In this document: in pieces, positions 27,445 to 43,027 of the stretch
Numbering within the stretch: the stretch's first letter is position 1
Layout: each line of letters opens with the position of its first letter
IMG/VR virus record: IMGVR_UViG_3300044780_000040
DNA from: a virus
Reading direction: 5' to 3' (one strand)
Length of the DNA: 46,444 bases
The notes under the pieces: generated by a model
Databases searched by the model: none
The model's input: the letters and a program-made list of their open reading frames with translations, nothing else
Told to the model about the DNA's origin: nothing
Translations under genes and position numbers: made by a program

Positions 27445-27986
27445 TGAACAATTAGTACATTGAACGCCTCCGGATCAATCTGCCCAATATGATCGATCAA
27501 GTGACGGGGGCGCGGAGTCTGCACTTCCGGATCATGCGAATGACAAACAGCGAGGGGAACCAATCTTGCATCGACACATAGAGCTTTCTGCAAAACTGGA
27601 ATATAAAGCTTCTCCAATTGCAGAAAGGCATCTGAATTGAATCGAATCTTAATTTCTCCCACAAGAATATGATTCTGATCATAAGAATCAATTAAGAAGT
27701 CTGGTTGGCACCAGAAGTTCTGCCCACTCCGATCGACATAGGAAAACCACGGAGATCGAATCAGGAAGCTTTGGGGGAGCCAATTTAAAACCTTCTCTTG
27801 AAATCTCAGACCTTGAAGCTTTGAGCCTCTCGGCTTGTAATGCACCTTGCTCACGAATGGCGGGCTGTGATCTCTATATGCGCTCAGAATCGGCAAATCT
27901 GGCAAGTGTCGAATATAATGAGGGAGAGGAGAAGCCTCGTTCTGCTTTGACCATGCATTCCTGTATGGCGTGGGCGGATGGACCAT
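27441..27986 (-). CDS. PD-(D/E)xK-like nuclease (putative)
   Basis: WCQPDFLIDSYDQNHILVGEIKIRF contains PD...E-x-K spaced 14 aa apart. The ATG overlaps the TerS stop (TGATG). Confidence 0.4.
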   Translation of the reverse strand: MVHPPTPYRNAWSKQNEASPLPHYIRHLPDLPILSAYRDHSPPFVSKVHYKPRGSKLQGLRFQEKVLNWLPQSFLIRSPWFSYVDRSGQNFWCQPDFLIDSYDQNHILVGEIKIRFNSDAFLQLEKLYIPVLQKALCVDARLVPLAVCHSHDPEVQTPRPRHLIDHIGQIDPEAFNVLIVH

Positions 27987-28621
27987 CAATCCTCTCCCTC
28001 ACTCTCTTCTCCAATTTCAGACTCCTGTCCCGCAACAGGAGACTTCGATTGAAGAGGAGCTGGATTCTTTTTCAGTTCCAATGTCTTCAGATGGGCGCGG
28101 GCGCGAGCGAGACCTTCCGCACTCACGGTCTGCGTCGCATTATTGTTCGTCAAATTGACATTCACTGACGGACTCCCACTTCGTGGGGGTTCGGGACCAT
28201 AACCGAGACGGTCGAGGGAACTTTTTGCAATATCATTCAGAAGGGGAAGGGGAATTGCATCTCTCTTTTTCTCTAATGCGGTGAGCGTATGGTCGAGGGC
28301 GGCTTCGGCGACTTTGACCAATTTGTCGGTCAATTTGTCTTTCAAAGTTTCTTCGAAGGCTTCGCGGCGCTGGCGATAGCGAGCTTTGAAGAGATCAGAA
28401 TTATAGATGGTCGAGACGGTGCCGTAGGATCTTCCGAGCCGCAGGGCACAATCTTTTATTGTTGTTCCAGGATGGCTTAATAGATCATCGATTATTCCAT
28501 CGTACCAAGCCATCGCGGTCGTGGGCCGCCAAAGCCGGCCAAAATCTCCGAACACATTGGTGATCGGCTTCACAGAATCAAGGTCAGCGGTGAAATCTTC
28601 AGGGAGCGGATTTTGTGTCAT
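27986..28621 (-). CDS. Terminase small subunit (putative; N-terminal HTH followed by a coiled coil)
   Basis: This is the first gene of the minus-strand operon. TIKDCALRLGRSYGTVSTIYNSDLF looks like an HTH, followed by a helical region and an acidic tail. Confidence 0.45.
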   Translation of the reverse strand: MTQNPLPEDFTADLDSVKPITNVFGDFGRLWRPTTAMAWYDGIIDDLLSHPGTTIKDCALRLGRSYGTVSTIYNSDLFKARYRQRREAFEETLKDKLTDKLVKVAEAALDHTLTALEKKRDAIPLPLLNDIAKSSLDRLGYGPEPPRSGSPSVNVNLTNNNATQTVSAEGLARARAHLKTLELKKNPAPLQSKSPVAGQESEIGEESEGED

Positions 28622-29039: not shown

Positions 29040-29678
29040 ATGTCTGATACAACCACGAATACCGAAAAGAAGCGCGAAGCCATTGCATCCCGCGAATGGA
29101 TCGATGAAAACGGCAAGGCCCTCAATTCCGGCGAGGAAAAACAGGCCGTCGGCTTCCGCTACATTCACCTCCCGAGCGCCAAAAAGGCCGACCCGAATTA
29201 CAATCCGGAGTCGAGCGGCCAACCGCCCGCAGGCACCTTCTTTGACTACGTTTGCGGCGAAGCCGGTCAACCCGGAACCATGCTGGCCATTTTTGGCGGT
29301 CTGACTCTCGCAGGGAACGTTGTCAACTCCGCAGTCAACGGCCCAAAGGGCGACCCCACGATCAACCCCATTTCACTCGTCGAAGCGCGATTCAAGGAGA
29401 TCGACGACGGCGTTTGGGCCGATCGCGCGGGTGGAGTCGGTGGAGTTCGATACGACAAGGACAAGCTTGCGGCCGCAATCGCCGCAGCCAAGGGCGAAAA
29501 AGACGTCTCGCCCTACTTGGCGAAGATGGATAATAAGGTCGATCCAAAGACCGGCGCAGTCGTTGCCAGCGATACGAAGGGAGCAATCTCTTACGGCGCC
29601 TTCGCGCTGCGGAATCCCGCGGTTAAGGGCGAATACGACAAACTGACCGGAGGCGGAGTGCAGCTCACTTCCCTCTGA
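29040..29678 (+). CDS. Hypothetical protein (212 aa), first plus-strand gene
   Basis: AAAGGAA lies upstream of the ATG. The composition looks globular. No family was recognised. Confidence 0.7.
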   Translation: MSDTTTNTEKKREAIASREWIDENGKALNSGEEKQAVGFRYIHLPSAKKADPNYNPESSGQPPAGTFFDYVCGEAGQPGTMLAIFGGLTLAGNVVNSAVNGPKGDPTINPISLVEARFKEIDDGVWADRAGGVGGVRYDKDKLAAAIAAAKGEKDVSPYLAKMDNKVDPKTGAVVASDTKGAISYGAFALRNPAVKGEYDKLTGGGVQLTSL

Positions 29679-29723
29679 TCCCCCCAGATGGCGCCGCGCA
29701 AATGCGGCGCCAAGGAGGCCCAA

Positions 29724-29849
29724 ATGTACCACGACGACCCATCGCGCGGCGGGTGGCCGAGCGTACTGTTGCAAATCGGCATCTTCGTTGCACTTCTGCT
29801 GCTCTTTTCGGACGAACTCCCAAATTTCCTCGGGAGATTCGCCCAATAG
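29724..29849 (+). CDS. Small membrane peptide (41 aa; below the ORF-track cutoff)
   Basis: AAGGAGG lies 5 nt upstream. My translation is MYHDDPSRGGWPSVLLQIGIFVALLLLFSDELPNFLGRFAQ, with one TM segment. The stop abuts the terminator. Confidence 0.5.
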   Translation: MYHDDPSRGGWPSVLLQIGIFVALLLLFSDELPNFLGRFAQ

Positions 29850-30111: not shown

Positions 30112-30140
30112 TTTTACATCCATCCCCTCCCTCCTTCTTA

Positions 30141-30207
30141 CTCTTATATACTTTTTTATTTTTTTTTTTTTAATATATAGAATAGAATATATATAGATGA
30201 ATATCAG
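30141..30207. other. AT-rich tract (candidate DNA-unwinding element)
   Basis: ctcttatatacttttttatttttttttttttaatatatagaatagaatatatatagatgaatat, including a T13 run. It is preceded by the polypyrimidine stretch catcccctccctccttctta. Confidence 0.6.
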
Positions 30208-30244
30208 AGACCCCCCGGCTGACTCCCCCTAAGATGAGGCAGTC

Positions 30245-30299
30245 AGGGTTAAGTTAAGGTCTTGTGAGGGTCTTGGCAGGGTCTTTTTAGGGTCCCACG
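30245..30299 (-). repeat. Five 11-bp-phased iterons, the reverse complement of the left array (AGGGTC core)
   Basis: agggtt at 30245, aaggtc at 30256, and agggtc at 30267, 30278 and 30289. Confidence 0.8.
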
Positions 30300-30320
30300 A
30301 CTAAACGCAACGAGTTAGGG

Positions 30321-30670: not shown

Positions 30671-31125
30671 TGCCTCTCGACATCAAAACACTCCGCCGAA
30701 ATCCGGGCGATCAAATGTTCACCCATTTCGACCCCGCGACCGGCGCCCAAACCTGCTTCGCCGTCACTCTGATCCGCGAGCACACCTCGCGGCTCGGAGA
30801 TCAATACATCTTCTCCGCTCCAATCGAGCCGCGAATGGCAAAAATGATTCTCATGAATCGGGGAATCGAGCGCCCCCGACTCAAGCGAGCAATCAGGACC
30901 ACCTACTACGACCCCCTCTTATACCTCGAGATGCCCGACGGCTCCCACTTGCTGGCCGACGGCTCCCACACATACGTCGCCATGTTTTACAAAGGGATCA
31001 CTTGGGCGAAGAGCTTCGTGGTCCCCCCTTCAATCTGGAATCAATTCACCATCTCCGGACTCCCCGCATGGGAATCGGAAGAACACCTCCTTCAATCCTT
31101 CAGTGGAGATCCCGCCAATGACTAA
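30670..31125 (+). CDS. Hypothetical protein; possible ParB/Srx-fold
   Basis: TAATG overlap with the upstream gene. PLLYLEMPDGSHLLADGSHTYVAMFYKG weakly resembles the ParB-like DG.HR segment. Confidence 0.5.
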   Translation: MPLDIKTLRRNPGDQMFTHFDPATGAQTCFAVTLIREHTSRLGDQYIFSAPIEPRMAKMILMNRGIERPRLKRAIRTTYYDPLLYLEMPDGSHLLADGSHTYVAMFYKGITWAKSFVVPPSIWNQFTISGLPAWESEEHLLQSFSGDPAND

Positions 31126-31780
31126 GAACGCCATCGCGAACCGAATCGGATCGCTTCAAGCTCCCCAACTGGACTACATCCTGCTTGACGGCTCATCTTC
31201 CATGATGACCAAATGGTGGGATTCTCTCGGCGCCCTGCAGGGCATGGTCGACGTCATGAAGGCCCAGAACATCAACTCCCACGGAATCATCCAGGTCTTC
31301 GATACCCACGACCTGAACTACGTTGCTCGCAACTCGACTCTAGACACTTGGCAATCCTTCCGTGACGACCCCATCGGCGCCCACTGGGGCGGTACGCCCC
31401 TCTACGACGCCATTAACCTTATGGGCCGCCAACTTCGCGACCTCGATCCCAAGAACGCCTCGATCGTCATCGTTACTGATGGCGAAGAAACCTCGAGCAA
31501 ATACACCACCCACGTTCAGGCAAAAGCCATCTTGGACTGGTGCAGAGCAAAAGGCTGGGCCGTCACCTTTATCGGCGCCGACTTCGACAACAACCAGCAA
31601 GCGAAACTTTTAGGCGCCAACGAATCCAATTCGATCGGGGTGCGAAAGGCCAAACTGCTTGAAGCCGGCAAAGCCTTCGGCCAGAAACGCGCCCGCCACG
31701 CCCTCTTTGGCGAAGACATCAATTTCACCGAAGACGAGCGAAAGAAATTCGGTGGCTTTTTGGAGCACAAAAAAGACTAG
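31118..31780 (+). CDS. von Willebrand factor type A (vWA) domain protein
   Basis: MIDAS motif DGSSS in YILLDGSSSM, then GGTPLYDAI and IVIVTDGEET. GGAG lies 9 nt upstream of the ATG at 31118. Confidence 0.75.
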   Translation: MTKNAIANRIGSLQAPQLDYILLDGSSSMMTKWWDSLGALQGMVDVMKAQNINSHGIIQVFDTHDLNYVARNSTLDTWQSFRDDPIGAHWGGTPLYDAINLMGRQLRDLDPKNASIVIVTDGEETSSKYTTHVQAKAILDWCRAKGWAVTFIGADFDNNQQAKLLGANESNSIGVRKAKLLEAGKAFGQKRARHALFGEDINFTEDERKKFGGFLEHKKD

Positions 31781-31835: not shown

Positions 31836-32093
31836 TTGCCAGAGGAATTGATGGGGATCAAAATGGATAATAAAGAACGAACACAGGCCGCCAACGCCCT
31901 CATACAATGGTTTAACTCCCAAGACATCAGCCAAGCTGACGCCGAAATCGTAATGCTCAAAGTGACCGCGAAGATCCTGAACCGCCGCTTTGACCGAACG
32001 AACCCCGCGAGCGTCACCGCGGCCTTAGACGAACATCAGCGAATCCTCGCCCACGAGACCATTGAAGCCATCTACAATGAGAAGAGAAAATGA
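31836..32093 (+). CDS. Hypothetical protein (start uncertain: TTG 31836, ATG 31851 or ATG 31863)
   Basis: ORF whose stop overlaps the next ATG (ATGA). Confidence 0.5.
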   Translation: MPEELMGIKMDNKERTQAANALIQWFNSQDISQADAEIVMLKVTAKILNRRFDRTNPASVTAALDEHQRILAHETIEAIYNEKRK

Positions 32094-32716
32094 CCGACGA
32101 ACTTCCGAAACAAGAACTTCTCATCAAACTGCTCAAGATGACCACGAGCAATAATGATGGCGAAGTCCTAGTCGCCGCCCGCAAAGCCAACGCTTTGCTT
32201 CAGAGCGCCGGCTGGGACTGGGAGAAACTGATCACCGGCAAAATTGTCATTGTTGAAGATCCCTTCAGCAAAATCGACACGCCCGACAACTTTGCCCGCA
32301 ATCCCCCGCGCGCTTATCAGCCCCCTCAACCTCCCAAGCCATCCGCGCCTCCTCCGCCGCGCCAAACTCAAAGCACCAATCCCCCGTGGGCTCAAGGTCC
32401 ATCTCGCGGCTCCCCGCCGCCGAACGTTAAGGCTCCGCCTCCACCTCCGCCCCCCAAGGCGGCGAAGGTCCCCTATTCCGACAAGCCGAACAAATTCACA
32501 TCATGGTGCTTCTGCTGTGGGGACACAGTCCCCTCCGACATGGGATTCATCATAAATCCCTCAAAATACAACTCCCGTGCCCCGAACAAGTTCGTTACCA
32601 TCTGCACCTCTTGCAATAAAGCGAATGTACCTATCGGGCGCTCTGGCGCCCCCCGACAAAAGCCCCTCTCCGCCGCTCCCGGCGGAGTCAAGACTCCATC
32701 TCTCAACGATCTCTAA
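32090..32716 (+). CDS. DUF2786-like N-terminal domain, Pro-rich linker and C-terminal Zn-ribbon; ends TPSLNDL
   Basis: LLIKLLKMTTSNNDGEVLVAARKANALLQSAGWDW fits the DUF2786 pattern. WCFCCGD...ICTSCN looks like a zinc ribbon. Confidence 0.6.
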   Translation: MTDELPKQELLIKLLKMTTSNNDGEVLVAARKANALLQSAGWDWEKLITGKIVIVEDPFSKIDTPDNFARNPPRAYQPPQPPKPSAPPPPRQTQSTNPPWAQGPSRGSPPPNVKAPPPPPPPKAAKVPYSDKPNKFTSWCFCCGDTVPSDMGFIINPSKYNSRAPNKFVTICTSCNKANVPIGRSGAPRQKPLSAAPGGVKTPSLNDL

Positions 32717-32731
32717 AAGGGATAAGAACTC

Positions 32732-33139
32732 ATGCAAAATCCCCAACAAAAACCAACAATGTCCGACAGATCAGAAATGATCCACGACTCTTACGTCATG
32801 CATATTCATAACCAGAAATGCTCCAGTTGCGGCCATTTAGAGCGCTTCAATCACTTCTATGAAGTCTGGATACACCCATCCAAGACCCGACTCACCGGCA
32901 TGAAGGATCTCCGGCCCGCCAACTCACTGAAGCCGAAGTTCTCCGTCACATACATCGACCTGCCTCCCCGCCCGATCCCGGTCTGCACCGAATGCGTGAA
33001 GCTGATCGAGCGAGAAGACCACATGATCATCACTGCGAACCCGGCTCAGTGGGCCGAGACCCTCAAGCGCAAATACGCCCCGGCGCCTTCGACTCCCGAC
33101 AAACCCGTAAAGACCACTCCAACCCTGGACCAATTGTGA
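32732..33139 (+). CDS. Hypothetical Zn-ribbon protein; ends TPTLDQL
   Basis: CSSCGH...VCTECV forms a CxxC pair. Confidence 0.6.
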   Translation: MQNPQQKPTMSDRSEMIHDSYVMHIHNQKCSSCGHLERFNHFYEVWIHPSKTRLTGMKDLRPANSLKPKFSVTYIDLPPRPIPVCTECVKLIEREDHMIITANPAQWAETLKRKYAPAPSTPDKPVKTTPTLDQL

Positions 33140-33396
33140 TGGCAAACGAATTTAGCGTCTACCAATTCTTCAAACCCATCACCCCTCAAGACGAGGGCCT
33201 CTACGAACGGGTACGGTCATTCGTCTCTTCGAAAGAAGCCGTCGAGGCCTTCGTCCACTTCACGACTTCGGTCGGCGCCCGCATGGGCTTCGTCGAGCGC
33301 GTCATCATCACCGACGGCGGCGACTCGACAGTCGCCGAATGGACCTACGGCAAAGGCATAACATTCCCGCTGGAGGCCCAAGATGCTCCCGACTAG
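33139..33396 (+). CDS. Hypothetical protein (85 aa)
   Basis: The ATG overlaps the upstream TGA (TGATG). The sequence begins MANEFSVYQFF... Confidence 0.55.
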   Translation: MANEFSVYQFFKPITPQDEGLYERVRSFVSSKEAVEAFVHFTTSVGARMGFVERVIITDGGDSTVAEWTYGKGITFPLEAQDAPD

Positions 33397-33610
33397 ATCC
33401 CAGAAGATCCTTATGCTCCTCGAACACGACGAGGACGACATCCGCACAATGGCCGAGATGCGTGCAAAACGCCTCGCTCGACTGATCGAACTCGAAGCTC
33501 CCGACTTCATAATCGCAAACGAGCTTCTCATGACGATGGAGGCTATTGAAGCCATCTTCCGGAAACACGACTTTGACCCCTTCGAAGACGAGCGGGTTTT
33601 CCATGACTGA
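33383..33610 (+). CDS. Hypothetical acidic protein (75 aa)
   Basis: GGAGG lies 6 nt upstream of the ATG. Confidence 0.55.
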   Translation: MLPTRSQKILMLLEHDEDDIRTMAEMRAKRLARLIELEAPDFIIANELLMTMEAIEAIFRKHDFDPFEDERVFHD

Positions 33611-33830
33611 ATATCGCACATTCTTCTGCCTCATCCGAGAGAATCCTTTCAGGGTCTACTTTCTCGGATGGGGCTTCGAGCGCCCTCGGCGCGATGAATC
33701 TCGCAAGCCGCGCTCTTTCGACTCCGAGATCGCCGCCCGCGAGATTAAAAAACACTTGCGGGGCGAACCTGTCTTAATCGAGAGACGAAGCAAAGTGCTC
33801 AAGCGAATGAAAGAAGATTACGATGTCTAG
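33603..33830 (+). CDS. Hypothetical basic protein (75 aa)
   Basis: ATGACTGA overlap with the upstream stop. Confidence 0.5.
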   Translation: MTEYRTFFCLIRENPFRVYFLGWGFERPRRDESRKPRSFDSEIAAREIKKHLRGEPVLIERRSKVLKRMKEDYDV

Positions 33831-34122
33831 AACTTACGTTCTCCCCCCACACCCACACCTTCATGAATTGGAGATTCGCGCCCACGAGAACGTAATCTAT
33901 TTCCACACGAACGGCCGTTGCTTTGGCCTCGACTACGAGATGGCCAAACAGCTTCGCGACGGCCTCACCGCAGTCCTGAGCGGCGCCTTCGACCGCGCCG
34001 TCAGCCAGACCTTCTTACAACTTCAAGAGGAGAGAGAAGCCCGAAACAAAACCATTCAGACTCAGACTACGAATCCAAATCCTTCTTCCCGAAACACCAA
34101 ACCGACACTGGACCAGTTATGA
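33823..34122 (+). CDS. Hypothetical protein; ends KPTLDQL
   Basis: 99-aa ORF overlapping its neighbours by a few nt. Confidence 0.55.
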   Translation: MSRTYVLPPHPHLHELEIRAHENVIYFHTNGRCFGLDYEMAKQLRDGLTAVLSGAFDRAVSQTFLQLQEEREARNKTIQTQTTNPNPSSRNTKPTLDQL

Positions 34123-34325
34123 GACGGCTTGACAAACGAATTCGTGAATTGCGCAGTGAGATCCAAATCATCACCCAAAAAGAAATATGTTTGGAGGCAG
34201 AAAGAACCGCTCTCATAGAGCTGTATAAGGAACATAATGACAAGAAAACGCAGACACCAACTAGTGATCGAGGTGGAATGCCTCGACCCACAAGGCCAGC
34301 GTCAGGCCCAAGATCGAGTTCATAA
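34119..34325 (+). CDS. Hypothetical coiled-coil protein (68 aa); its tail overlaps the next ORF
   Basis: ATGA overlap with the upstream stop. MRRLDKRIRELRSEIQIITQKEICLEAERTALIELYKEH is followed by a low-complexity tail. Confidence 0.4.
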   Translation: MRRLDKRIRELRSEIQIITQKEICLEAERTALIELYKEHNDKKTQTPTSDRGGMPRPTRPASGPRSSS

Positions 34326-34464
34326 CTGGTTCGAGACCTTCGGCCACACTGCTTGCTCCCACGGTTTTGTCTTTAAGACTGTGGGAGTAATGACTGGGAA
34401 GCAGATCGCCTCCCACATCCGAGTATCCCGCAACCACGAAGAGGAAGATGAGGCACCAGAATGA
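34237..34464 (+). CDS. Hypothetical protein (75 aa)
   Basis: AAGGAA lies upstream of the ATG. Globular-looking composition. Confidence 0.5.
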   Translation: MTRKRRHQLVIEVECLDPQGQRQAQDRVHNWFETFGHTACSHGFVFKTVGVMTGKQIASHIRVSRNHEEEDEAPE

Positions 34465-34805
34465 GCGCAATGGACCACTTTATGTCGATCGACCGTCAAC
34501 TTCAGGGAATGCGCGAGCATTTCGAATCCGAAAGGAAATCCCTGATGGACCAACTATTCGTCGCCAGAGCCGAAGCCCAACTGGCGAACGAACAACTCCA
34601 GCGCGCCGTTGAAGCCCGCGCCCACGCCGAGCGAATGACAGTCCGCCTCTTGACCCAATTCGCAACAGTGGCCTTGGTTTTCGACGAAGCCCGCCATGTC
34701 GCCGAAGACACCGGCCTACTTCAACCGAATGTGAAACCTGAAGTAGCCAAAGCGGTCGAACAAGGTCTACTCGAAAAGCTCGGCGAACTGTCCGGCGAAA
34801 GGTAA
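34461..34805 (+). CDS. Hypothetical coiled-coil protein (114 aa)
   Basis: ATGA overlap with the upstream stop. Confidence 0.55.
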   Translation: MSAMDHFMSIDRQLQGMREHFESERKSLMDQLFVARAEAQLANEQLQRAVEARAHAERMTVRLLTQFATVALVFDEARHVAEDTGLLQPNVKPEVAKAVEQGLLEKLGELSGER

Positions 34806-34808
34806 AAA

Positions 34809-35282
34809 ATGTCCGACATCCTCTACAAGCCGCGCGTTTACTTCGCCTCTGCCTTCGACCGGCACGGGGTCGGAAGAATGCTGAGCGAAGACCCCCAATG
34901 GGCTTTCGTTCATTGGACCTCGACCTGGATCACCAAGACCTATCTCGAGGCCGTCTCTACGCCTGAAGAATTCGCTGACCACTGGACTCTAGACTTCAAA
35001 GAGATCCGGGACTCCGACATTCTAATGCTCTATGGTCGCGAAGCAATGCCCCGACTTAAAGGCGCGCTTGTAGAGTGTGGGGTCGCAATCGCGAGCGGCC
35101 TCAAAGTCCTCGCAATCGGTCTGGACGTTTCAGTGCATACTTGGGCTCACCATCCCGCAGTGCATCGAGTAAACACCCTCGCCCAGGCCAGAAATCATTT
35201 ATATTCCTTCACCATATCTGCGAGACCCCGCAGACCAGAAGAGAAGAAACCCAATGCCAAAACCAATGAAACTGACAATTGA
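34809..35282 (+). CDS. Nucleoside 2-deoxyribosyltransferase-like protein
   Basis: RVYFASAF...DFKEIRDSDILMLYGREAMPRLKGALVECGVAIASGLKVLAIG fits YLAG...D..I..sD.l.......G...E.G.A.a.Gk.V, with a candidate catalytic Glu. Confidence 0.45.
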   Translation: MSDILYKPRVYFASAFDRHGVGRMLSEDPQWAFVHWTSTWITKTYLEAVSTPEEFADHWTLDFKEIRDSDILMLYGREAMPRLKGALVECGVAIASGLKVLAIGLDVSVHTWAHHPAVHRVNTLAQARNHLYSFTISARPRRPEEKKPNAKTNETDN

Positions 35283-35472
35283 AATTGAAGAGAAGCTCTT
35301 CGGCCCCGTCTTTGCGAAGATCGACCGGATGGACGGAGTCATCTCTATCCATCTCCACGGCCGGGGCGCCTTGACCACCACGGCGAAGTCACCAGTTAAG
35401 CGAGCCCCGTGGGGCTCGAAGACCAAGGGCGGAAGACCCATTAAGACTCCGAAGCGCGCGGTGAAGAAATGA
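35254..35472 (+). CDS. Hypothetical basic protein (72 aa)
   Basis: ORF with a 29-nt overlap with the upstream gene. The start is uncertain. Confidence 0.45.
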   Translation: MPKPMKLTIEIEEKLFGPVFAKIDRMDGVISIHLHGRGALTTTAKSPVKRAPWGSKTKGGRPIKTPKRAVKK

Positions 35473-35840
35473 CCTATTATCGCGTGCTTCGCACGTATCG
35501 CTTCATCGACAAAGACCCCGTTTGTGACAGAGTCAAGACGGTGGTCCAAGATGAAGGTTTGGAGAAGCGACTCCAAGTCGTCGCCGACTTGGCTGGCCTG
35601 AACATCAATACTGTTCGCGCTTTGCTATTCGGAGGGACCAAATCCCCCCAAAACCGAACTATCATGGCGATCATGACTTCGCTCGGCTACGAACACTCTT
35701 TCGCCAAATCCCGCAAACTGAACGTGGACGAAGAACTCGAATTCGCCCGCGCCTATAATAAAAAAGAGAAAGCTCGAATCCAAGGGCTAAAGAGCTCAAA
35801 ATCCCGCAAAAAGAAACAACGAAGAAAGGAGAAGCTTTAA
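35469..35840 (+). CDS. Putative DNA-binding (HTH) protein with a Lys/Arg-rich tail
   Basis: ATGA overlap with the upstream stop. VADLAGLNINTVRALLFGGTKSPQNRT looks like an HTH. The C-terminus is KSSKSRKKKQRRKEKL. Confidence 0.4.
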   Translation: MTYYRVLRTYRFIDKDPVCDRVKTVVQDEGLEKRLQVVADLAGLNINTVRALLFGGTKSPQNRTIMAIMTSLGYEHSFAKSRKLNVDEELEFARAYNKKEKARIQGLKSSKSRKKKQRRKEKL

Positions 35841-36043
35841 TGTTTGTCGGCTTAACTGGCCACCAACTCGACGCGATGATCCACGCCGCCATCGCTGAAT
35901 CCAAGAAGTACACCGATCAGGCAGACGCGCGAAGTGCGAACTACCCGATCCATATGACCGCGGCGTTTATAATGGGCTCTATCGCTGTCATGCTTTTAGA
36001 AGCCAGAAAGGTACGCGACGATGAAACTGAAGCTGACGATTAA
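35840..36043 (+). CDS. Hypothetical small membrane protein (67 aa)
   Basis: TAATG overlap with the upstream stop. HMTAAFIMGSIAVMLL is a hydrophobic segment. Confidence 0.5.
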   Translation: MFVGLTGHQLDAMIHAAIAESKKYTDQADARSANYPIHMTAAFIMGSIAVMLLEARKVRDDETEADD

Positions 36044-36206
36044 CATCGACGATCCCTCTGAGGAAGATCCTCAAGAGATCATGAACCGCTACACCGCAAT
36101 CATAGACGAAGCCCTCGACAACGCCCTCAAAGAGGAAGCTGTCGACTACCTATTGACTTGCGAAGAAGTTTCCGACGAACCAACGTCGCCCGCAAAACCC
36201 GAATAG
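36021..36206 (+). CDS. Hypothetical acidic protein (61 aa)
   Basis: ORF ending 8 nt before a terminator hairpin. Confidence 0.4.
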   Translation: MKLKLTINIDDPSEEDPQEIMNRYTAIIDEALDNALKEEAVDYLLTCEEVSDEPTSPAKPE

Positions 36207-36213
36207 CACCTTT

Positions 36214-36245
36214 CTGGGAGGAGAGCCCCTCCTCCCAGCCTTTTC
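36214..36245 (+). terminator. Rho-independent terminator
   Basis: Perfect 10-bp stem ctgggaggag / ctcctcccag with a 5-nt loop, followed by ccTTTTct. Confidence 0.7.
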
Positions 36246-36260
36246 TATCTGGAGAGTAAG

Positions 36261-36686
36261 ATGACCCGCTCGAAGCATATGCCTCTTAGCTCCTTCGGTG
36301 CAGAACTGCAAGAAGTAATGCGTCAAGGCGCGAATAAAGAAATCCGTATCACCTTCGACACCGAAGCACTAGCGACCAGATTCTTGCACCGGATCAACAC
36401 CCTTCGCGTCGCAATGAAGCGCGAAAAGCATCCCGACTGGGAACAGCTATACCGCTGTAGCGCCCGAAAAGACGAGCAAGATCCCAAAATTCTCATAGTC
36501 GCCCCCCGCGACTCCGAATTCCTACCAGCACTCAAATCCGCCGGGATCGCAGTCGTTGAACCAGAAATCAGTGAATACAAAGTTCCAACCCCTGCTCCCG
36601 ATTCGGGTGGGGTCGAAGACTTTCTTGGAGAGCTTCGTGACGTCACAACTGTACCGAAAAAGACCCCCGGTCTCGACAAGCTCTGA
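36261..36686 (+). CDS. Hypothetical protein (141 aa); ends TPGLDKL
   Basis: GGAGAG lies upstream of the ATG. This is the first gene after the terminator. Confidence 0.6.
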   Translation: MTRSKHMPLSSFGAELQEVMRQGANKEIRITFDTEALATRFLHRINTLRVAMKREKHPDWEQLYRCSARKDEQDPKILIVAPRDSEFLPALKSAGIAVVEPEISEYKVPTPAPDSGGVEDFLGELRDVTTVPKKTPGLDKL

Positions 36687-36732
36687 AATACTTATCGAGA
36701 CCTCGAATTTTCATGTTGATCGTGGCTTAATT

Positions 36733-36765
36733 TGGGGCCATTATCAGTGCGATAACAGGCCCATT
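36733..36765 (+). promoter_or_regulatory. Copy c of the 33-nt palindromic motif (TGGGGCCATTATCAGTGCGATAACAGGCCCATT), 19 nt upstream of the RHH-like gene
   Basis: Intergenic between 36686 and 36785. TTGATC lies 17 nt upstream of CATTAT, so a sigma70-type promoter could overlap the motif. Confidence 0.6.
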
Positions 36766-36784
36766 CTATCTCGAGTTCACTAAA

Positions 36785-36991
36785 ATGAGCCGCCAGAAGA
36801 CCCCCGAACCTTACGTTCAACAGAAGGTATCTTTTCCCGCAACCCTCTTAGCTCGCTTCTCACGTTTCCATTGGGACCCGGTCTTGAATAAGATGGAGTA
36901 CGGTGCAATTTCGCGCGTTATGACCGACTTGTTGACCGACTACGTAAACAGACGTGAGAATCCAGAACCCGAAAAGGAGAAGACCACTTGA
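36785..36991 (+). CDS. Putative ribbon-helix-helix (Arc/CopG-like) DNA-binding protein
   Basis: 68 aa. QQKVSFPATLLARFSRF is a beta-strand-like segment, followed by two predicted helices. Confidence 0.35.
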   Translation: MSRQKTPEPYVQQKVSFPATLLARFSRFHWDPVLNKMEYGAISRVMTDLLTDYVNRRENPEPEKEKTT

Positions 36992-37221
36992 CCCAGATTA
37001 TGGACTCTTACGAGCACCTTAATTCTTGGGACCCGGTTAAGCTCTTCGAGCGCCGGTCCGCTTTGATCGGCGCCGCTCCGAATGGCGATTTTAAGCAATT
37101 GAGCGATGAAGCTTTGCAAGAATTAGTGGCAATCGCCCGAGTCTTGCGAAAGAAAACCTCCCCCGCAGCCCGCGTCTCTGGCGGAAAGAAAGCCATAACG
37201 CCAACCCTGGACGTTCTGTGA
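36988..37221 (+). CDS. Hypothetical protein (77 aa, TTG start); ends TPTLDVL
   Basis: AGGAG lies 8 nt upstream of the TTG. Confidence 0.5.
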   Translation: MTQIMDSYEHLNSWDPVKLFERRSALIGAAPNGDFKQLSDEALQELVAIARVLRKKTSPAARVSGGKKAITPTLDVL

Positions 37222-37865
37222 TGTTTCTAGACCTTCCAACATTCGTATTCCTGAATGGACCCACCGACGCAGGGAAATCGACTCTAGCATCTCTTATAGT
37301 CGATTTAGACCAACACACGATGGTCGAATCTCTCGCCGAACCAATCCGTCAAATGATATATGGGACCTTCTTTCCAGAAGAGGGTCCCATCGATTATTCT
37401 TTCGACCTTCGTGACTCAAAGACGAAAAGAGAAAACCTATTCACCCTCGCAAAACTGAACTTCGAATCAAGACCCGACGACGAAATCCCTCCCGCCGACA
37501 TCCGCGACACCATGATCGACTTCGCCGACGACTTCATGAGAGCCAAATTCGGCACAGAAATCTTCGGCCGGCTTCTCTTGAAGCGTTGCCTCGAACAACA
37601 ACAGTTCTACAAACACTTCATCATTGACGACGTTGGTTTCACCGACGAGGTGAAGTTCATAGTCAACTTCGTAGGCCCCGACAACTGCCATCTGATCCGA
37701 ATCCACAGAGCTGGCTTCGAATTCCGCGGAGACAACCGAAACTACATCTCTCTCCCAGGGGTCCAGACCCTAGACCTCAATAATAATGGGGACCCCGACG
37801 AGATGTTAGACACGCTCGCCGCCGAATTTCGCGCCGCCGAACCTCCCACATTGGACACCCTCTAA
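37221..37865 (+). CDS. P-loop (deoxy)nucleotide kinase-like protein; ends PPTLDTL
   Basis: Walker A in FVFLNGPTDAGKSTLA. Its size and architecture resemble phage dNMP kinases. The ATG overlaps the upstream TGA. Confidence 0.5.
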   Translation: MFLDLPTFVFLNGPTDAGKSTLASLIVDLDQHTMVESLAEPIRQMIYGTFFPEEGPIDYSFDLRDSKTKRENLFTLAKLNFESRPDDEIPPADIRDTMIDFADDFMRAKFGTEIFGRLLLKRCLEQQQFYKHFIIDDVGFTDEVKFIVNFVGPDNCHLIRIHRAGFEFRGDNRNYISLPGVQTLDLNNNGDPDEMLDTLAAEFRAAEPPTLDTL

Positions 37866-38113
37866 TGTCTCTAATCGAACTAATCGTAATGCGTCTTTCA
37901 GACATGCACCGCATGCACCCCGAGCAGATCACCTCACACTGCTCTAAATGCGGACATGAAGTCGGGATCTATCCCTCCGGCCAGCGTGTCTTGAAAGAAC
38001 ACCCCTCCACCCGAATAATCTGCCAAATCTGCCGAGGCGACCGCCCCGACATCGCAATCCTCGCCCCCGGCGCAGAGCACGAAATCCTCGAATCCAAGGA
38101 TCGAAAAGAATGA
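37865..38113 (+). CDS. Hypothetical Zn-ribbon protein (82 aa)
   Basis: CSKCGH...ICQICR. TAATG overlap with the upstream stop. Confidence 0.55.
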   Translation: MSLIELIVMRLSDMHRMHPEQITSHCSKCGHEVGIYPSGQRVLKEHPSTRIICQICRGDRPDIAILAPGAEHEILESKDRKE

Positions 38114-39159
38114 CCCCGCAAGCCGTCCTCCCGCAACACATCGACTCAACAATGATAAACAGCTTCAGAAGCTGTCACCAGAAATTCAAAAACGAGTTCA
38201 TCTTCGGCCTTCGACCCCCCGAGCCTTCGATCGATCTCCATGCGGGAGCCTGCTTTTCCGCAACCCTCGAAAGACTATACAGGGAGATCTATCACAATGG
38301 CCTTGACACTTCTGCTGCCCTTGCACGAGCATACGCGACTTTCACCCATGAATGGGGAGACTTTGTCATCCGAAAGGAAAAACATCCAAAGACTCCTGAG
38401 AATATGTGGGCCGCCATCGAAGACTATGTGCGGGTCTATCCTCCTAAATCTGATCGTGTTCAACCGTATTACTCCGGAGACGCGCCGTCACTTGAATTCT
38501 CTTTCGCGATCCCTCTGGAATTCCCAAATTTTCCACGGCACCCTGTTAGCGGAGATCCCTTTATCTACACTGGTCGATTCGATCTCTTTGGAAAGAGAGA
38601 TGAGCGGCCTGTCGTCCGAGATGAAAAGACTGCTCAACGTCTGGAGTCTAATTGGGCGGAGAAATGGGACCTCCGGTCTCAGTTCCTGGGCTATTGCTGG
38701 GCCTTGCAGCATAACGGAATACCTTGCAACACTGTCGTGGTTCGCGGAGTCATCGTTACCCTCACGACCATACGTCAGGTTGAGGCGGTCAAAATCTACC
38801 CTCAACACCTTATTGAGACCTGGTTTGAACAATTACGAAGAGATCTCATAAACATAACCGAATGTTGGAATGAAGGTTATTGGGACTACAATTTCGGTGA
38901 CTCCTGCACCCAATATTCACACTGCCCCTTCATGACCCTCTGCTCCAGCCCTCATCCCGAAAACTGGTACGAATCTTATGAGGTGAAGAGATGGAATCCC
39001 CTCAACCGAAATCCGAGCAGACAAGACCCATCATCCATTGCTGCGAATTTTGCCTCTACTGGGAATATACCACCCCAGTACCGATCACTGCTTTCTGCCA
39101 CCACGAATTCTGGAGTTGCGAGCAAGACAGCAGGTTCCGATGCCACTATTTTGCCCTGA
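38110..39159 (+). CDS. PD-(D/E)xK exonuclease, Cas4/RecB-family-like
   Basis: GRFDLFG...VVRDEKT gives the D and D/E-x-K motifs, and QFLGY gives QxxxY. The Cys set (SCHQ... and CTQYSHCPFMTLC) suggests an Fe-S cluster. The last 55 aa or so are low complexity and overlap the next ORFs. Confidence 0.7.
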   Translation: MTPQAVLPQHIDSTMINSFRSCHQKFKNEFIFGLRPPEPSIDLHAGACFSATLERLYREIYHNGLDTSAALARAYATFTHEWGDFVIRKEKHPKTPENMWAAIEDYVRVYPPKSDRVQPYYSGDAPSLEFSFAIPLEFPNFPRHPVSGDPFIYTGRFDLFGKRDERPVVRDEKTAQRLESNWAEKWDLRSQFLGYCWALQHNGIPCNTVVVRGVIVTLTTIRQVEAVKIYPQHLIETWFEQLRRDLINITECWNEGYWDYNFGDSCTQYSHCPFMTLCSSPHPENWYESYEVKRWNPLNRNPSRQDPSSIAANFASTGNIPPQYRSLLSATTNSGVASKTAGSDATILP

Positions 39160-39364: not shown

Positions 39365-39466
39365 AGAAGAGTGTCTCGGCGCGGGAGAGAAAGCTCTCCC
39401 CGCCTGCTCAATCGGAATCGGACCTTTCGGGTCGGTTTCCGAGACCTGTATTCCGAGGAGATATTT

Positions 39467-39700
39467 ATGTGTCCCACAACCAAAAAAGATCCTAATCGCT
39501 CCGCGACGGATCTCCCCTCCATGTCCGTTCGGATCGATTTGCAGAACAAAGAATTCGACGCCGTAGACAAACTCTGCGCTCGCTGGAGAATCTTACAAAA
39601 GGTCGCTGTCGTTGATGACGACTACCCCGAAATGCGCCATTATTACGAATCTGCTATGAAAGACCTGATCGATGCCATCAGAGCAAACGGGCGAATCTGA
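39467..39700 (+). CDS. Hypothetical protein (77 aa)
   Basis: GAGGAGA lies 5 nt upstream of the ATG at 39467. Confidence 0.55.
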   Translation: MCPTTKKDPNRSATDLPSMSVRIDLQNKEFDAVDKLCARWRILQKVAVVDDDYPEMRHYYESAMKDLIDAIRANGRI

Positions 39701-39986
39701 ACTAAAGTGCGAAATCTGTGGCCAGCCCGCAATCGGTGTAGCGAGCACCCTCATGCCCTACAGTTGCGCCTATTGCATTGAATGTGCTCGCCGTTTTGCT
39801 CAACCAAAAATCGTTTTTGTTTGCCTTTTTGAAGATTTCGCTCAAGGGTCCCTTTTGCGGGACGAGGTAATGGATCTGGAGACATACGAAAATGGACGCT
39901 ACATCACCTTCAGAGTATGGGCAAAAACCCATTCAACCACCAGCGACCCTTCTGTTCGGCCCCGCGGGGAGCGGCAAGACGACTAG
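39672..39986 (+). CDS. Hypothetical Cys-rich protein (104 aa)
   Basis: KCEICGQ...YSCAYCIEC. The 3' end overlaps the next gene by 95 nt. Confidence 0.45.
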   Translation: MPSEQTGESELKCEICGQPAIGVASTLMPYSCAYCIECARRFAQPKIVFVCLFEDFAQGSLLRDEVMDLETYENGRYITFRVWAKTHSTTSDPSVRPRGERQDD

Positions 39987-40809
39987 CCTTTCGACCTTCG
40001 CGAAACAAGGGATCGAAGTCTTCGTCATCATAACCGAGCCCACGGGGCTCGACTCCCTTCTCGATGCGTGGGCCAGAGAGAAACTCGACATCAACCTCTT
40101 GCACTGGTGCGTAGTTCCTCCCGCCGCCCCCGGCTGGACCGCTTTGAAAGAAATGGCAATCCGAATCCAAGCCATGAGCTATCAAGCTCTTTCAGAATTA
40201 AAGTCCGGAATCGGCAAAGATCAAATGAAGCAATATATGAAGCTTCTCACAAATCTAGAGAATTTCCATGACGAACGCACGCAGAAAGATTATGGCGATG
40301 TTACAAGCTGGGGAGACGATCGCGTTCTGGTCTTTGATTCTCTTTCTGGCATTAGCCTTATTGCACTCCAGCAGACCGTCGGATTCAAGCCCTCCCCCCA
40401 TCAAGGCGAATGGGGGATCGCCATGTCCGCAATCGAACAACTCCTTCTAAAAGTCTCCAGCGATTGCCAATGCTTCTTTGTCTTGACCGCCCATGTGGAG
40501 AAAGAACCCGATGAAATCACGGGCATGGCGAAGGTTCAAGTATCTACTCTGGGCAAGAAGCTTGCCCCCAAAATTCCCCGCTTCTTTAGTGAAGTCGTTA
40601 GATCCAGAAAAGACTCCACAGGCAAATTCTTGTGGTCTACCCTCGACGCGGAGTCTGATCTCAAGAATCGTGCGCTTCCCGCGGGATCTTCTCTGGATGC
40701 TGACTTCGCCCCGATCATAAAAGCTTACCACAAACGAAAAGAGATGCTAGAAGCTTCCGGCGCCGCAGCGGGAGCGGAGGCTAACACCAACCCTGCGGTG
40801 AGGGTCTAG
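39892..40809 (+). CDS. RecA-fold ATPase, AAA_24/Sak4-like recombination protein
   Basis: Walker A in LLFGPAGSGKTTS and Walker B in VLVFDSLSGISL. The size and the downstream ssDNA-binding-type gene fit a Sak4 module. Confidence 0.6.
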   Translation: MDATSPSEYGQKPIQPPATLLFGPAGSGKTTSLSTFAKQGIEVFVIITEPTGLDSLLDAWAREKLDINLLHWCVVPPAAPGWTALKEMAIRIQAMSYQALSELKSGIGKDQMKQYMKLLTNLENFHDERTQKDYGDVTSWGDDRVLVFDSLSGISLIALQQTVGFKPSPHQGEWGIAMSAIEQLLLKVSSDCQCFFVLTAHVEKEPDEITGMAKVQVSTLGKKLAPKIPRFFSEVVRSRKDSTGKFLWSTLDAESDLKNRALPAGSSLDADFAPIIKAYHKRKEMLEASGAAAGAEANTNPAVRV

Positions 40810-40811
40810 AC

Positions 40812-41288
40812 ATGCCATTCGATGCAGAAAAGTTCTTACATCAAACTATCGAAGAACCCATGTCTACAGTCATGATTCCTTGCCCCGAAGGGGAGTTCAA
40901 GGCATTCGTAGACGACGGAGACAAAGCCGTCACCTTTCGCGAAGGGGGAACTGACCGCAACGGAGAGAAACTTTCTCCGCAGTGCGTCGTCTTATTCGCG
41001 ATTATGGGGGACCAACTTCCGAACCAAATTCTGAAACGAGACAAGGTGCTCGTTCCGATGAACTGCTGGCTGGATCTCACTGAAGACGGAGCTTCCCTCG
41101 ATCTGAACGAGGGAAAGAACGTCAGTCTGGGCCGTCTGCGAAAGGCGCTCGATCAGAATGAGGGCAAGTGGAATCCCCTCATGATGAAGGGCAAAGGCCC
41201 CGTCATGATCAAGGTATCCCAGCGCTCGGACAAAACCGATCCTACAATCAAATATGCTGAGGTCAACCGAGTAAGCAAGATTACCTGA
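40812..41288 (+). CDS. Putative ssDNA-binding protein (DUF669-like)
   Basis: 158 aa, immediately after the Sak4-like gene. The PCPEGEFKAFV...VVLFAI pattern resembles DUF669. This is a low-certainty family call. Confidence 0.35.
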   Translation: MPFDAEKFLHQTIEEPMSTVMIPCPEGEFKAFVDDGDKAVTFREGGTDRNGEKLSPQCVVLFAIMGDQLPNQILKRDKVLVPMNCWLDLTEDGASLDLNEGKNVSLGRLRKALDQNEGKWNPLMMKGKGPVMIKVSQRSDKTDPTIKYAEVNRVSKIT

Positions 41289-41388: not shown

Positions 41389-41679
41389 ATGTCGAATGAT
41401 CCACTTTTAGAACTAGAACTAGTGGAGATGAAAGTGTCAGCATTTCCGAGCGGCGTTGTAATCTTCTTCCGCATTATGACCCCCGACGCCCAATTGGCGA
41501 GGGGCGTCCATCTTGAAGGTCGCTCTGTACTCATTGGCGCCTCAGACTACCACCACAACGACTACGTTGTAGTCGACGAAAAAGGCGCCTTTCTGGCCTG
41601 CTACCCCCGCGAATTCGTCGCCGCCATAATGCCTCTAAAAACAGAGGGAGAGCCAGATGCATCTTATAAATCGCGCTGA
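41389..41679 (+). CDS. Hypothetical protein (96 aa)
   Basis: AAAGGA lies upstream of the ATG. Confidence 0.5.
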   Translation: MSNDPLLELELVEMKVSAFPSGVVIFFRIMTPDAQLARGVHLEGRSVLIGASDYHHNDYVVVDEKGAFLACYPREFVAAIMPLKTEGEPDASYKSR

Positions 41680-43027
41680 TCTCTTGATTGAAAAGCGCCA
41701 GCGAAAAGAGATCCCAAAACCCTCTCTTGAAGAACTAAAGGAATCCATTCTTGAAAACACTCTACTCCACGCCCCAGTGGTTCAAGAGAAGAACGGCAAA
41801 TACATTTTGGTTGTCGGCGAGCGCCGGACTCGCGCGCTCGACCTTATCGCTGCAGATGGCTTGGTCTTTGTATACAACAAAACCGACATCCTTCCCGGCA
41901 CAATCCCTGTCGTTTTGCTCGACGAGGCCATTTCTGACATCAAGCGTCAGGAAATCGAACTCGCAGAAAACACAGATCGTTTGGATATTCCGTGGCAAGA
42001 TCGTGTTGAGGCTCTTGCCTTTATCCATGAACAGAAAAAGAATCTTAATCCATATCAGTCCGTCGTTGAGACTGCGCGTGAGATTATTGAAGAAGAAGCG
42101 GCAGCCCTCGCCGGCCCGCAGGGCGGCCTCGCGCTTTCAACCGTCAGCAAGGCCGTTCGCCAAGCCGAGATCATCAATAAACACCTGGACAAGCCCGAGA
42201 TCCAAAAGGCCCGCAACGCCACTGAAGCCTTCAATCTCATCGTGGCGAATGAACAGCGCGCATTCGAAGCTGAATTGATCCGCCGAGGCCAAAAGAAAAT
42301 CATCACCATTGAGGTACGACATGGATCACTCCTCGACATCATGCCCCGACTCGACCCCGGGCAATTTGATACTATTCTGGCGGACCCCCCTTATGGAATC
42401 GACGTTGATAGCGCCGGTTTTCGATCCCGAACTGTCCATCACCACAACTATGCCGACACCCCAGACGCTGCAAGAAACCTCATCTCTTGCATCTTGTCCG
42501 AAGGATTTCGAGTTTGCAAATCAAGAGCAAACATATTCATATTCTGTGACATCGACCTTTTCGGATGGATCAAAGAAGCTTCAGCGCGTGCGGGGTGGGA
42601 CCCTTTTAGAACTCCGATCACTTGGCAGAAAAGTGATAGTGAAGGGATGGCTCCGTGGGGACGGGAGGGTTTTCGCCGCACCACTGAGTGGATCTTTTTC
42701 GCTCGAAAGGGGCAGAAAGGTCTTATACATTCTCCCATCGACCTTTTACGATATAATAGAGTCCCTCGAGATGAACGCGAATATGGACCTGAAAAACCGA
42801 CTGACCTTCTTAAAGCTCTGCTTTCTTGCTCCACTCTTCCTGGGGATTCTATTCTGGACCCTTGCTGCGGCAGCGGCTCTACTCTCATTGCTGCGCGCTC
42901 ACTGAATATGCGCGCCCTCGGCATAGAACCTGATGAGAAAGCGTACAACCTTGCTCTGGTAAAATCACAAACTCTAAGTCCGGAGCCTGCCTCTTCTCCC
43001 GCACAAAGTTCGCTGGAGGTTCTATGA
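41657..43027 (+). CDS. ParB-like N-terminal domain fused to a beta-class N6A/N4C DNA methyltransferase
   Basis: ILVVGERRTRAL carries the ParB GERR box. ILADPPYGI (motif IV) precedes DPCCGSGSTLIAA (motif I), the order found in beta-class enzymes such as CcrM/HinfI-type. Confidence 0.85.
   Translation: MHLINRADLLIEKRQRKEIPKPSLEELKESILENTLLHAPVVQEKNGKYILVVGERRTRALDLIAADGLVFVYNKTDILPGTIPVVLLDEAISDIKRQEIELAENTDRLDIPWQDRVEALAFIHEQKKNLNPYQSVVETAREIIEEEAAALAGPQGGLALSTVSKAVRQAEIINKHLDKPEIQKARNATEAFNLIVANEQRAFEAELIRRGQKKIITIEVRHGSLLDIMPRLDPGQFDTILADPPYGIDVDSAGFRSRTVHHHNYADTPDAARNLISCILSEGFRVCKSRANIFIFCDIDLFGWIKEASARAGWDPFRTPITWQKSDSEGMAPWGREGFRRTTEWIFFARKGQKGLIHSPIDLLRYNRVPRDEREYGPEKPTDLLKALLSCSTLPGDSILDPCCGSGSTLIAARSLNMRALGIEPDEKAYNLALVKSQTLSPEPASSPAQSSLEVL

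Follow-up and report, generated by a model that had tools for sequence, protein, structure and literature searches.

Why do several unrelated early proteins of one phage end in almost the same short peptide? We addressed this question for the IMG/VR virus record IMGVR_UViG_3300044780_000040, whose whole stretch of 46,444 nucleotides was analysed and is called the window in the following. Six plus-strand early open reading frames (ORFs) of the window end in P[TSG]L[DN]xL directly followed by the stop codon. Together with two degenerate versions of this C-terminal tail, there are six to eight proteins that carry it, which we term clients (Table 1). An earlier note on this DNA had listed the six tails and interpreted them as a short linear motif by which the clients dock to one hub, and all six ORFs and endings were confirmed here. 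We find that the motif is real, that it is selected at the level of the peptide, that it lies on a disordered segment, that it evolves in concert within genomes, that it is gained and lost, and that it is limited to early accessory proteins. The observation is thus solid and the docking interpretation is well supported; a likeness to clamp-binding motifs is unsupported at the sequence level.

The number of such endings in the window is far above the chance expectation. In the six-frame translation, P[TSG]L[DN]xL matches seven times, and six of these matches are immediately followed by the stop codon that ends a long plus-strand ORF; the seventh (at 27373) is off-frame within a minus-strand gene. 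Based on the composition of the proteome, the pattern has a chance of 8.5e-6 per C-terminus, so that 0.0005 cases are expected among 62 genes. The probability of at least six such endings is 2e-23, which is a post hoc value as the pattern was picked after the data had been seen. We therefore also used a statistic that does not depend on a motif and compared it to shuffled proteomes: the largest set of C-terminal 6-mers with at least four of six identities has five members in the window, compared to a maximum of three in 2000 shuffles. The motif is absent from all 27 late proteins. A loose core in the last eight residues is observed at 14.2% on the early side compared to 3.2% expected, and on the late side it reaches 1.2x the expectation. 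As the earlier note had claimed, the carriers are otherwise unrelated: when the tails of eight clients are cut off, no pairwise similarity is left (all blastp E > 0.6). The note had also described a linker rich in Pro, Lys, Thr and Ser ahead of each tail. The six linkers combined have 38% of these residues compared to 24% in the proteome, and the description holds for five of the six; the tail of the deoxynucleoside monophosphate (dNMP) kinase is instead preceded by ...LAAEFRAAE.

The tails are conserved at the C-termini of orthologues. With first the nuclease and then the VWA (von Willebrand A) protein of the window as the anchor, about 60 related loci were collected from metagenomes of IMG/VR and JGI; the identity in those proteins is 43-78% (labels such as L028 refer to related sequences). 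In the family of the 77-aa client, the tail is present in 34 of 34 homologues from these loci and in 11 of 11 database homologues, and it is also kept in the families of the 208-, 135-, 99- and 212-aa proteins. The two weaker tails mentioned in the earlier note proved to be genuine. Orthologues of the 212-aa first early protein end in VTLDMI (L028), VSLDQI (L030), KATDL (L012), SIDDLLG (L055) or PLDVL (L048), and those of the ParB-methylase end in SADDL, SAEDL, SAADL, SVQEL or EENLA, making the latter a full client in other lineages. Within this family, the entropy at positions -6 to 0, leaving out -1, is 0-1.3 bits, compared to 1.9-2.8 bits in the preceding 17 positions. Pro(-5) is invariant across 24 distinct DNA tails that use all four Pro codons, and Leu(-3) is encoded by six codons; this agrees with the previous proposal that selection acts on the peptide and not on the DNA. 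D(-2) is found in 23 of the 24 distinct tails, but the variants LNDL, LGDI and LNQI shift or lack the acidic residue. In an AlphaFold2 model of the 77-aa client, helices extend to residue 57, and residues 58-77 have no secondary structure and a pLDDT mostly below 50. The tail of this client is thus predicted to sit on a disordered segment.

Could the similarity arise at the level of the nucleic acid, for instance as a stop-codon context, as a coupling or terminator element, or by gene conversion of the 3' ends? A DNA consensus, CCN-ACN-CTG-GAC-NNN-YTN-TRA, is indeed visible. However, the Pro, Leu and Thr codons vary between the tail copies of the window, for Leu and Pro at both the first and the third position, and up to four to six codons are used for the invariant residues across orthologues. 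The sequence 3' of the stop is different in each case, and the downstream contexts range from an overlapping ATGA to 15-nt spacers and 100-nt gaps. Furthermore, the differences between genomes are amino-acid differences, with uniformity within each genome, and the codon differences within a genome mean that gene conversion is not the source of the shared sequence. This explanation is thus highly improbable and effectively refuted by the codon data.

The tails of different protein families evolve in concert. In a comparison across 21 genomes, tails from one genome but from different families have 3.18 of six residues in common, whereas the figure falls to 1.75 of six for the tails of one family from different genomes; none of 2000 permutations reached the observed value. 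Each lineage can thus be described by its own dialect. The dialect of the window is P[TSG]L[DN]xL. Further dialects are P[TS]L[DEN]xI (L004, L028, L030 and L043), PT[PA][DE]xL (L012), P.[IL]EDL (L057) and PT[LV]DML (L061). The others are LE[DE]LI (L058), [ST]IDDLLx (L055), ATIDDLLA (L049), ..DLA (L053, L060 and L064), T[TS]LEDLGL plus 1-4 residues (L056 and L059), T[IV]DDLSF (L069) and LDDLxxxF (L070). The family-wide core is [TS]-[LI]-[DE]-[DE]-L. Since several lineages add 1-7 variable residues after this core, it is not the free carboxylate that is conserved. Such uniformity of the dialect within a genome would be expected if all tails were read by one genome-specific reader. The tail has the general properties of a short linear motif, as it is short, lies in a disordered region, is conserved against a divergent background and is independently gained and lost on unrelated proteins. 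Disorder, conservation in orthologues and concerted evolution are also the behaviour that the docking hypothesis of the earlier note predicts.

Which proteins carry the tail? Searches of the six clients in Pfam and PHROGs detected only the dNMP kinase and a sub-threshold match to DUF2786. As previously suggested, the clients include a nucleotide-kinase-like enzyme as well as two zinc-ribbon proteins with the pattern CxxC...CxxC. Client 1 combines a weak DUF2786-like N-terminal domain (E=0.075), a Pro-rich linker, a CxCC...CxxC zinc ribbon and the tail. In 11 of 11 more distant VWA-bearing loci that were compared, its homologue comes after the VWA gene, and 10 of these 11 homologues have the tail of their lineage; the best match in L049 ends in KRKAKRLF. 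The pair of VWA and client-1 (DUF2786-like/zinc-ribbon) genes also occurs in L067, a phage with a P22-like portal gene and a Terminase_3 gene. For client 2, all nine orthologue matches have the lineage tail, and D(-2) and P(-5) are invariant in nine distinct DNA tails. Orthologues of client 3 end in PSLDDL, PDVEDL, PTLEDI or PSLEDI. Most orthologues of client 4 end in ...TTVPKK, just short of the tail, which is found only in the window and in L016 (SNLDDL); the tail of client 4 is thus a recent gain. The gene of client 5 lies just upstream of the nuclease gene in most relatives. Orthologues of client 6, the dNMP kinase, end in PRPSDL, PATEDL, QEEML or PEKEML or have no tail; for both this kinase and the ParB-methylase, the tail is present in some lineages and missing in others.

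Additional clients are found in other phages. In L067/L103, tails occur on a UvrD-like helicase (NLEDFQQ) and on a Pyr_excise pyrimidine-dimer glycosylase (TFEELFK), and small tailed proteins of this phage end in LDELFA, NIEDLFSND, LEDLLG or TLTDLGL. Based on the gain and loss of tails and on these L067/L103 clients, the client set is therefore dominated by DNA-transaction proteins and small zinc-ribbon proteins. The core proteins (both polymerase parts, the DUF3987 helicase, the AAA_24 protein, the 158-aa protein and the nuclease) are never tailed, neither in the window nor in the relatives. Tails are also present on two unrelated proteins of the cultured Caulobacter phage Kuura (Table 1), in the Vibrio phage VS-ABTNL-3 (ALLDDILGGI and ALLDVVFGQNGE) and in L071 (TLEELGL, SLEDLGL and SLDDLEL). 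In Mel-JY34 and MW202489, which lack the VWA gene, similar endings mostly belong to one paralogous family and one small family, and the loose core pattern is not enriched. We thus discounted these endings as independent evidence, as they mainly reflect paralogy. A scan anchored on the helicase, aimed at a natural pair of phages with and without the VWA gene, yielded 30 loci; most of them are unrelated tail-less phages, and L071 and L073 were informative. A different kind of shared ending was seen in the Pseudomonas phage phiPsa374 (L063), where four small proteins encoded at 32373-34658 end in W..SS..C (WSSSYGTC, WDSSSMYC, WSYSSQDC and WNASSQSC). These appear to be a paralogous family with a conserved C-terminus that is unrelated to the present motif.

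In our view, the tail is likely to be a short linear motif by which its carriers dock to a common receptor. The peptide, with one or two acidic residues plus an aliphatic anchor or two, is presented on a disordered, basic and Pro-rich linker and would tether a varying repertoire of accessory early proteins to this single receptor. Receptor and tails would co-evolve, which would give each lineage its own dialect, and proteins would enter or leave the client set by gain or loss of the tail. More tentatively, the putative receptor may be part of the replication module of the phage, that is, the PD-(D/E)XK nuclease, the AAA_24/Sak4-like ATPase, the 158-aa gp2.5/DUF669-like protein, the split UDG-PolA polymerase and the DUF3987 helicase, and the tail would then act as a tag for recruitment to the replisome or to single-stranded DNA (ssDNA). 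The PDDEXK/AAA_24 module is present in every tail-bearing phage whose sequence reaches it (Kuura, VS-ABTNL-3, L071, L073 and L067/L103). The candidate receptors are the AAA_24 protein, the tail-less 158-aa protein, the DUF3987 helicase and the polymerase. The AAA_24 protein is a concrete candidate, since the Sak4 protein of phage HK620 depends on the last six residues of the acidic tail with which its single-stranded DNA-binding protein (SSB) ends (PMC5928155). In the family of the 158-aa protein, two of 16 homologues have a weak match to DUF669 and the C-terminus ...RVSKIT is conserved; this protein is possibly a gp2.5-like ssDNA-binding protein. Taken together, we give a docking tail that is read by a candidate receptor in the replication module a nearly even chance.

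Several points weigh against this interpretation. No covariation of the tail dialect with candidate receptors was seen, as the MIDAS loops of the VWA protein show none and nuclease residues track the phylogeny. The concerted evolution of the tails could equally mirror adaptation to different host proteins. The co-occurrence of tail and module is confounded by shared ancestry, since all these phages belong to one supergroup. Furthermore, in the known systems the ssDNA-binding protein has the tail and its partners have the pocket, whereas the polarity proposed here is reversed. The nuclease was considered as the receptor and rejected. Four of its alignment columns split genomes with I-ending and L-ending tails perfectly, but L019 breaks the link to the tail: its tail ends in L although it belongs to the I-ending clade, and its nuclease keeps the I-clade residues, so that the split reflects phylogeny.

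A different receptor is conceivable, and the host sliding clamp is one option. The tails would then be clamp-binding motifs of a divergent kind, through which the clients would be loaded onto host DnaN, and DNA modification, repair and regulation would thereby be coupled to replication, similar to T4 (gp45) and Mu (MuC/Mor). The clients, which comprise a methylase, a helicase, a glycosylase, a kinase and zinc ribbons that bind DNA, do resemble the tool-belt of a clamp, and an acidic-hydrophobic motif near the C-terminus behind a flexible linker is also found in T4 gp43, gp33 and gp55. Among the window proteins of at least 200 aa, no clamp family encoded by the phage itself was found. Some dialects end in [DE]-L-F or L-G-L, similar to the C-terminal half of clamp-binding motifs, for instance LDELFA, NIEDLFSND, NIDDLFSE, TLEDLGL and QVLDLFK (Mel-JY34). 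However, canonical beta-clamp motifs have the form Q-phi-x-[LM]-[FL] or Q-phi-x-[LM]-x-[FL] (PMC11139829), and none is found at the termini of early proteins in the window. Gln at position 1 is missing in essentially all of about 100 tails, and the window has T, S or G there. When T-L-D-x-L is mapped onto the motif, the aliphatic position 2 corresponds to Leu(-3) in the window and to P, A, S or T in the closely related L012 lineage (PTPDEL, PTAEDL and RASDL), which keeps a single hydrophobic residue. At position 4, the window has D, Q, Q, K, V or T instead of [L/M], and the final L fits. The window tail thus deviates at two of the four defining positions. Other lineages have L-F, L-x-F or L-G-L with one extra residue ahead, which places the upstream aliphatic residue one position too far from the L-F pair. 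Furthermore, the Vibrio phage tail ALLDDILGGI is non-canonical although its host group has canonical motifs, a lineage-specific concerted drift away from QLxLF is unexpected as the beta pocket is highly conserved, and the phage polymerase itself is never tailed. The comparison with the clamp-binding peptides QL[SD]LF and QLxLxL that the earlier note had drawn thus fails, and we consider the clamp an unlikely receptor. We also noted QAKLL inside the VWA protein as a potential clamp motif and rejected it, as it is not conserved in distant homologues.

The VWA protein itself could also be the receptor. The metal of its metal-ion-dependent adhesion site (MIDAS) would coordinate the acidic residue of the tail and an adjacent pocket would take up the aliphatic residue, as for LDV/LDT-type ligands of integrins. 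The MIDAS is intact (D29, S31, S33, T98 and D126) and invariant in 54 homologues, and the best PDB matches of the VWA model (pLDDT 81) are the ligand-binding I-domains of CMG2/ANTXR2, integrin alpha-I domains and factor B. The gene lies among the client genes, beside client 1 in the VWA-bearing loci compared, and the pair recurs in L067 with different structural genes and with tails on new clients. The protein is also far better conserved than the clients, with 491 homologues, of which 53 aligned ones are 56-78% identical. Yet a hidden Markov model of the VWA family finds no match in Kuura, VS-ABTNL-3, Mel-JY34 or MW202489, all of which are complete genomes. No VWA is found in the first 14 kb of the early region of L071 (IMGVR_UViG_3300050821_004051), whose contig was not recovered by VWA pattern scans, and the tail-bearing L073 also lacks it. 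Conversely, phiPsa374 has a 30%-identical VWA protein and no tails. In addition, the sequence of the MIDAS loops does not follow the tail dialect and some tails (PNLNQI) have no acidic residue. As complete tail-bearing genomes lack the family, the VWA protein was demoted as a general receptor, a role for which we see only a slim chance; it may be a conserved client partner or adaptor within one subclade. A degron or chaperone tag is similarly improbable. By this account, a host protease, an adaptor or a PDZ-type reader of C-termini would handle the early proteins on schedule. The confinement of the tail to early proteins fits this account, several dialects end in -LA or -LLA and are vaguely ssrA-like, and the window tail [DN]-x-L-COOH formally fits the class III PDZ pattern, which is [DE]-x-hydrophobic-COOH. 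However, in many lineages 1-7 variable residues follow the core (for instance TLEDLGLGEDF, LDDLNSIF and NIEDLFSND), so that the last residues and the carboxylate are not the determinant, and the tail is unlike the cytoplasmic degron classes of bacteria such as LAA-COOH. The clients also include enzymes that are needed throughout infection (methylase, kinase and helicase), and family searches of the phage found no PDZ or protease family.

Returning to docking within the replication module, we tentatively suggest, with less confidence than for that placement itself, that the tails and a phage-encoded receptor other than a clamp (AAA_24, gp2.5/DUF669-like, DUF3987 or UDG-PolA) form a private and co-evolving addressing code, in which the MIDAS VWA protein might also be involved in one subclade. 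If this is true, these podophages of soil and freshwater, a large supergroup that is for the most part uncultured, recruit acquired accessory enzymes to the replisome via a tag of 5-7 residues, and the lineage dialects would insulate co-infecting relatives from each other.

The window is a complete genome of about 46.3 kb that is circularly permuted or terminally overlapping, because its first 127 nt (1-127) are identical to its last 127 nt (46318-46444). Its GC content is 52%. The nearest cultured phage is the Microcystis phage Mel-JY34, whose polymerase is only 35% identical and whose genome plan is alike. The features discussed here are listed in Table 1.

Table 1. Coordinates of genes and C-terminal tails. 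Positions refer to the window, except for the last two rows, which refer to phage Kuura (OQ067476.1, L101).
Feature	Position	Strand	Length (aa)	Tail (position)	Remarks
Late genes	2640-28621	minus			Large terminase, portal, major head protein, tail fibres, 1995-aa protein
Early and replication genes	29040 onwards, across junction to 2207	plus
First early gene	29040-29678	plus	212	VQLTSL	Degenerate tail
VWA protein	31103-31780	plus			Sits among client genes
Client 1	32090-32716	plus	208	TPSLNDL (32693-32713)
Client 2	32732-33139	plus	135	TPTLDQL (33116-33136)	CxxC...CxxC zinc-ribbon protein
Client 3	33823-34122	plus	99	KPTLDQL (34099-34119)	No family match
Client 4	36261-36686	plus	141	TPGLDKL (36663-36683)
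Client 5	36988-37221	plus	77	TPTLDVL (37198-37218)	Small helical domain, about 20 residues predicted as disordered
Client 6	37218-37865	plus	215	PPTLDTL (37842-37862)	Deoxynucleoside monophosphate kinase (phrog_139, E=2.5e-27)
PD-(D/E)XK nuclease	38110-39159	plus			Core module; tail-less throughout; anchor for finding relatives
AAA_24 (Sak4-like) ATPase	39892-40809	plus			Pfam AAA_24; core module; tail-less throughout; candidate receptor
158-aa core protein	40812-41288	plus	158		Candidate receptor; no acidic tail of its own
ParB_N and N6/N4 DNA methyltransferase	41657-43027	plus	456	SSLEVL	Pfam; degenerate tail
Family-A DNA polymerase, N-terminal part	44145-45974	plus			UDG-like domain, 3'-5' exonuclease, polymerase start; tail-less
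Family-A DNA polymerase, C-terminal part	18-929	plus			Tail-less; ends ...SWGDCK in all relatives
DUF3987 helicase-like protein	948-2207	plus			Core module; tail-less; candidate receptor
Kuura gp36, first tailed protein	33048-33374	minus		NIDDLFSE	Unrelated to the second
Kuura gp51, second tailed protein	39440-40105	minus		SIDDLLSTL	Unrelated to the first

The N-terminal part of the polymerase has the ending ...NLQNIPKGEE, which is kept among relatives. The two polymerase ORFs are about 360 nt apart (18-929 corresponds to 46335 onward), and the same split is found in L028 and L007. In L007, a 165-aa ORF fills the gap between the halves; in Mel-JY34 and MW202489, the polymerase is one ORF. The VWA protein has a conserved motif, FGG[YF]L, near its C-terminus. 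Searches against PDB sequences with the VWA, 212-aa and 208-aa proteins and with a profile of the 158-aa family gave nothing useful. Immediately 3' of the first early gene, a GC-rich hairpin (GGCGCCGCGCAAATGCGGCGCC, 29679-29730) is terminator-like. An AT-rich island (30120-30300), which contains a poly-T run (CTTTTTTATTTTTTTTTTTTTAATATATAGAATAGAATATATATAG) and is followed by three direct GGGTCTT repeats, separates this gene from the remaining early genes. A role as an origin or as an early promoter/operator region is conceivable, and a similar poly-T tract opens the contig L071.

On the late side, the 1995-aa protein (2640-8627, minus strand) has no Pfam match and is probably an internal virion or ejection protein; Mel-JY34 has a giant ORF of 1894 aa at the same place. 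A BNR (sialidase-like) repeat domain (PF15892, E=2.7e-8) is present in a 740-aa protein (25222-27444, minus strand) that adjoins the large terminase. The 182-aa protein at 27441-27989 (minus strand) has a D...E-x-K pattern (DFLID...VGEIK), which suggests a PD-(D/E)XK-type endonuclease. The window and the first 20 kb of L067 have only three proteins in common, of which this is one, and in Mel-JY34 the neighbour of its counterpart is annotated as endonuclease I.

Our literature searches for the motif strings, for short linear motifs in phages and for VWA proteins found no earlier account of the motif, nor of any similar tail shared by proteins of such phages. Shared terminal docking peptides organise the tool-belts of replisomes, such as those of the beta clamp, PCNA, T4 gp45 and SSB tails. 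The signal described here behaves like such a system, yet it matches none of the known motifs. It is unusually clean and spans hundreds of related metagenomic phage sequences. The tail also gives a functional handle on many early proteins without a family, as partners of one putative hub, and the cultured phage Kuura, with the motif on two unrelated proteins, offers an experimental system.

How does the tail compare to known systems? MIDAS ligands include the LDV/LDT/IDS motifs that are bound by integrins and the Asp of anthrax PA that is bound by CMG2. Similar to these, the tail has an aliphatic residue followed by Asp or Glu, and a MIDAS-competent VWA protein with a fold near CMG2 and integrin I-domains is encoded among the clients. 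In contrast to these, the VWA gene is missing from several tail-bearing relatives and no covariation was seen; to our knowledge, no intracellular VWA hub of a phage has been described. Acidic C-terminal tails are also carried by T7 gp2.5 and gp4. The tails of SSB (DDDIPF) and of the SSB read by Sak4 in HK620 (PMC5928155) are likewise acidic-hydrophobic C-terminal peptides that are read by replication or recombination proteins. They differ from the present case in that the putative ssDNA-binding protein is here tail-less, many accessory proteins are tailed, and there is no Pro-Phe end.

Compared to beta-clamp motifs, including those of MuC and Mor of phage Mu, the tail shares a terminal position, a disordered region, an acidic residue before Leu and a hydrophobic end (PMC11139829, PMC12867686). 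In Mu, the terminal motif lets phage regulators couple to replication, and Mor works with only the DLF of the clamp consensus (PMC12867686). The tail differs by the absence of Gln1 and [LM]4 in the window and by the spacing of the aliphatic residue, which is off by one in the family-wide core. A scan of genome contigs for the host of the window gave no match. In T4, the interchangeable acidic-hydrophobic C-terminal tails of gp43, gp33 and gp55 follow a divergent linker and dock on gp45 (PMC2988020). The present system differs from this one in its sequence, in having no detectable gp45/PCNA/beta-like gene and a polymerase that is tail-less in all relatives, in its larger number of mostly accessory clients (6-8), and in a motif that drifts in concert between close relatives. 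As in T4, however, a hydrophobic-acidic C-terminal peptide behind a divergent, flexible linker is present on several phage proteins, and the clamp-tail system of T4 is the closest known system in its logic.

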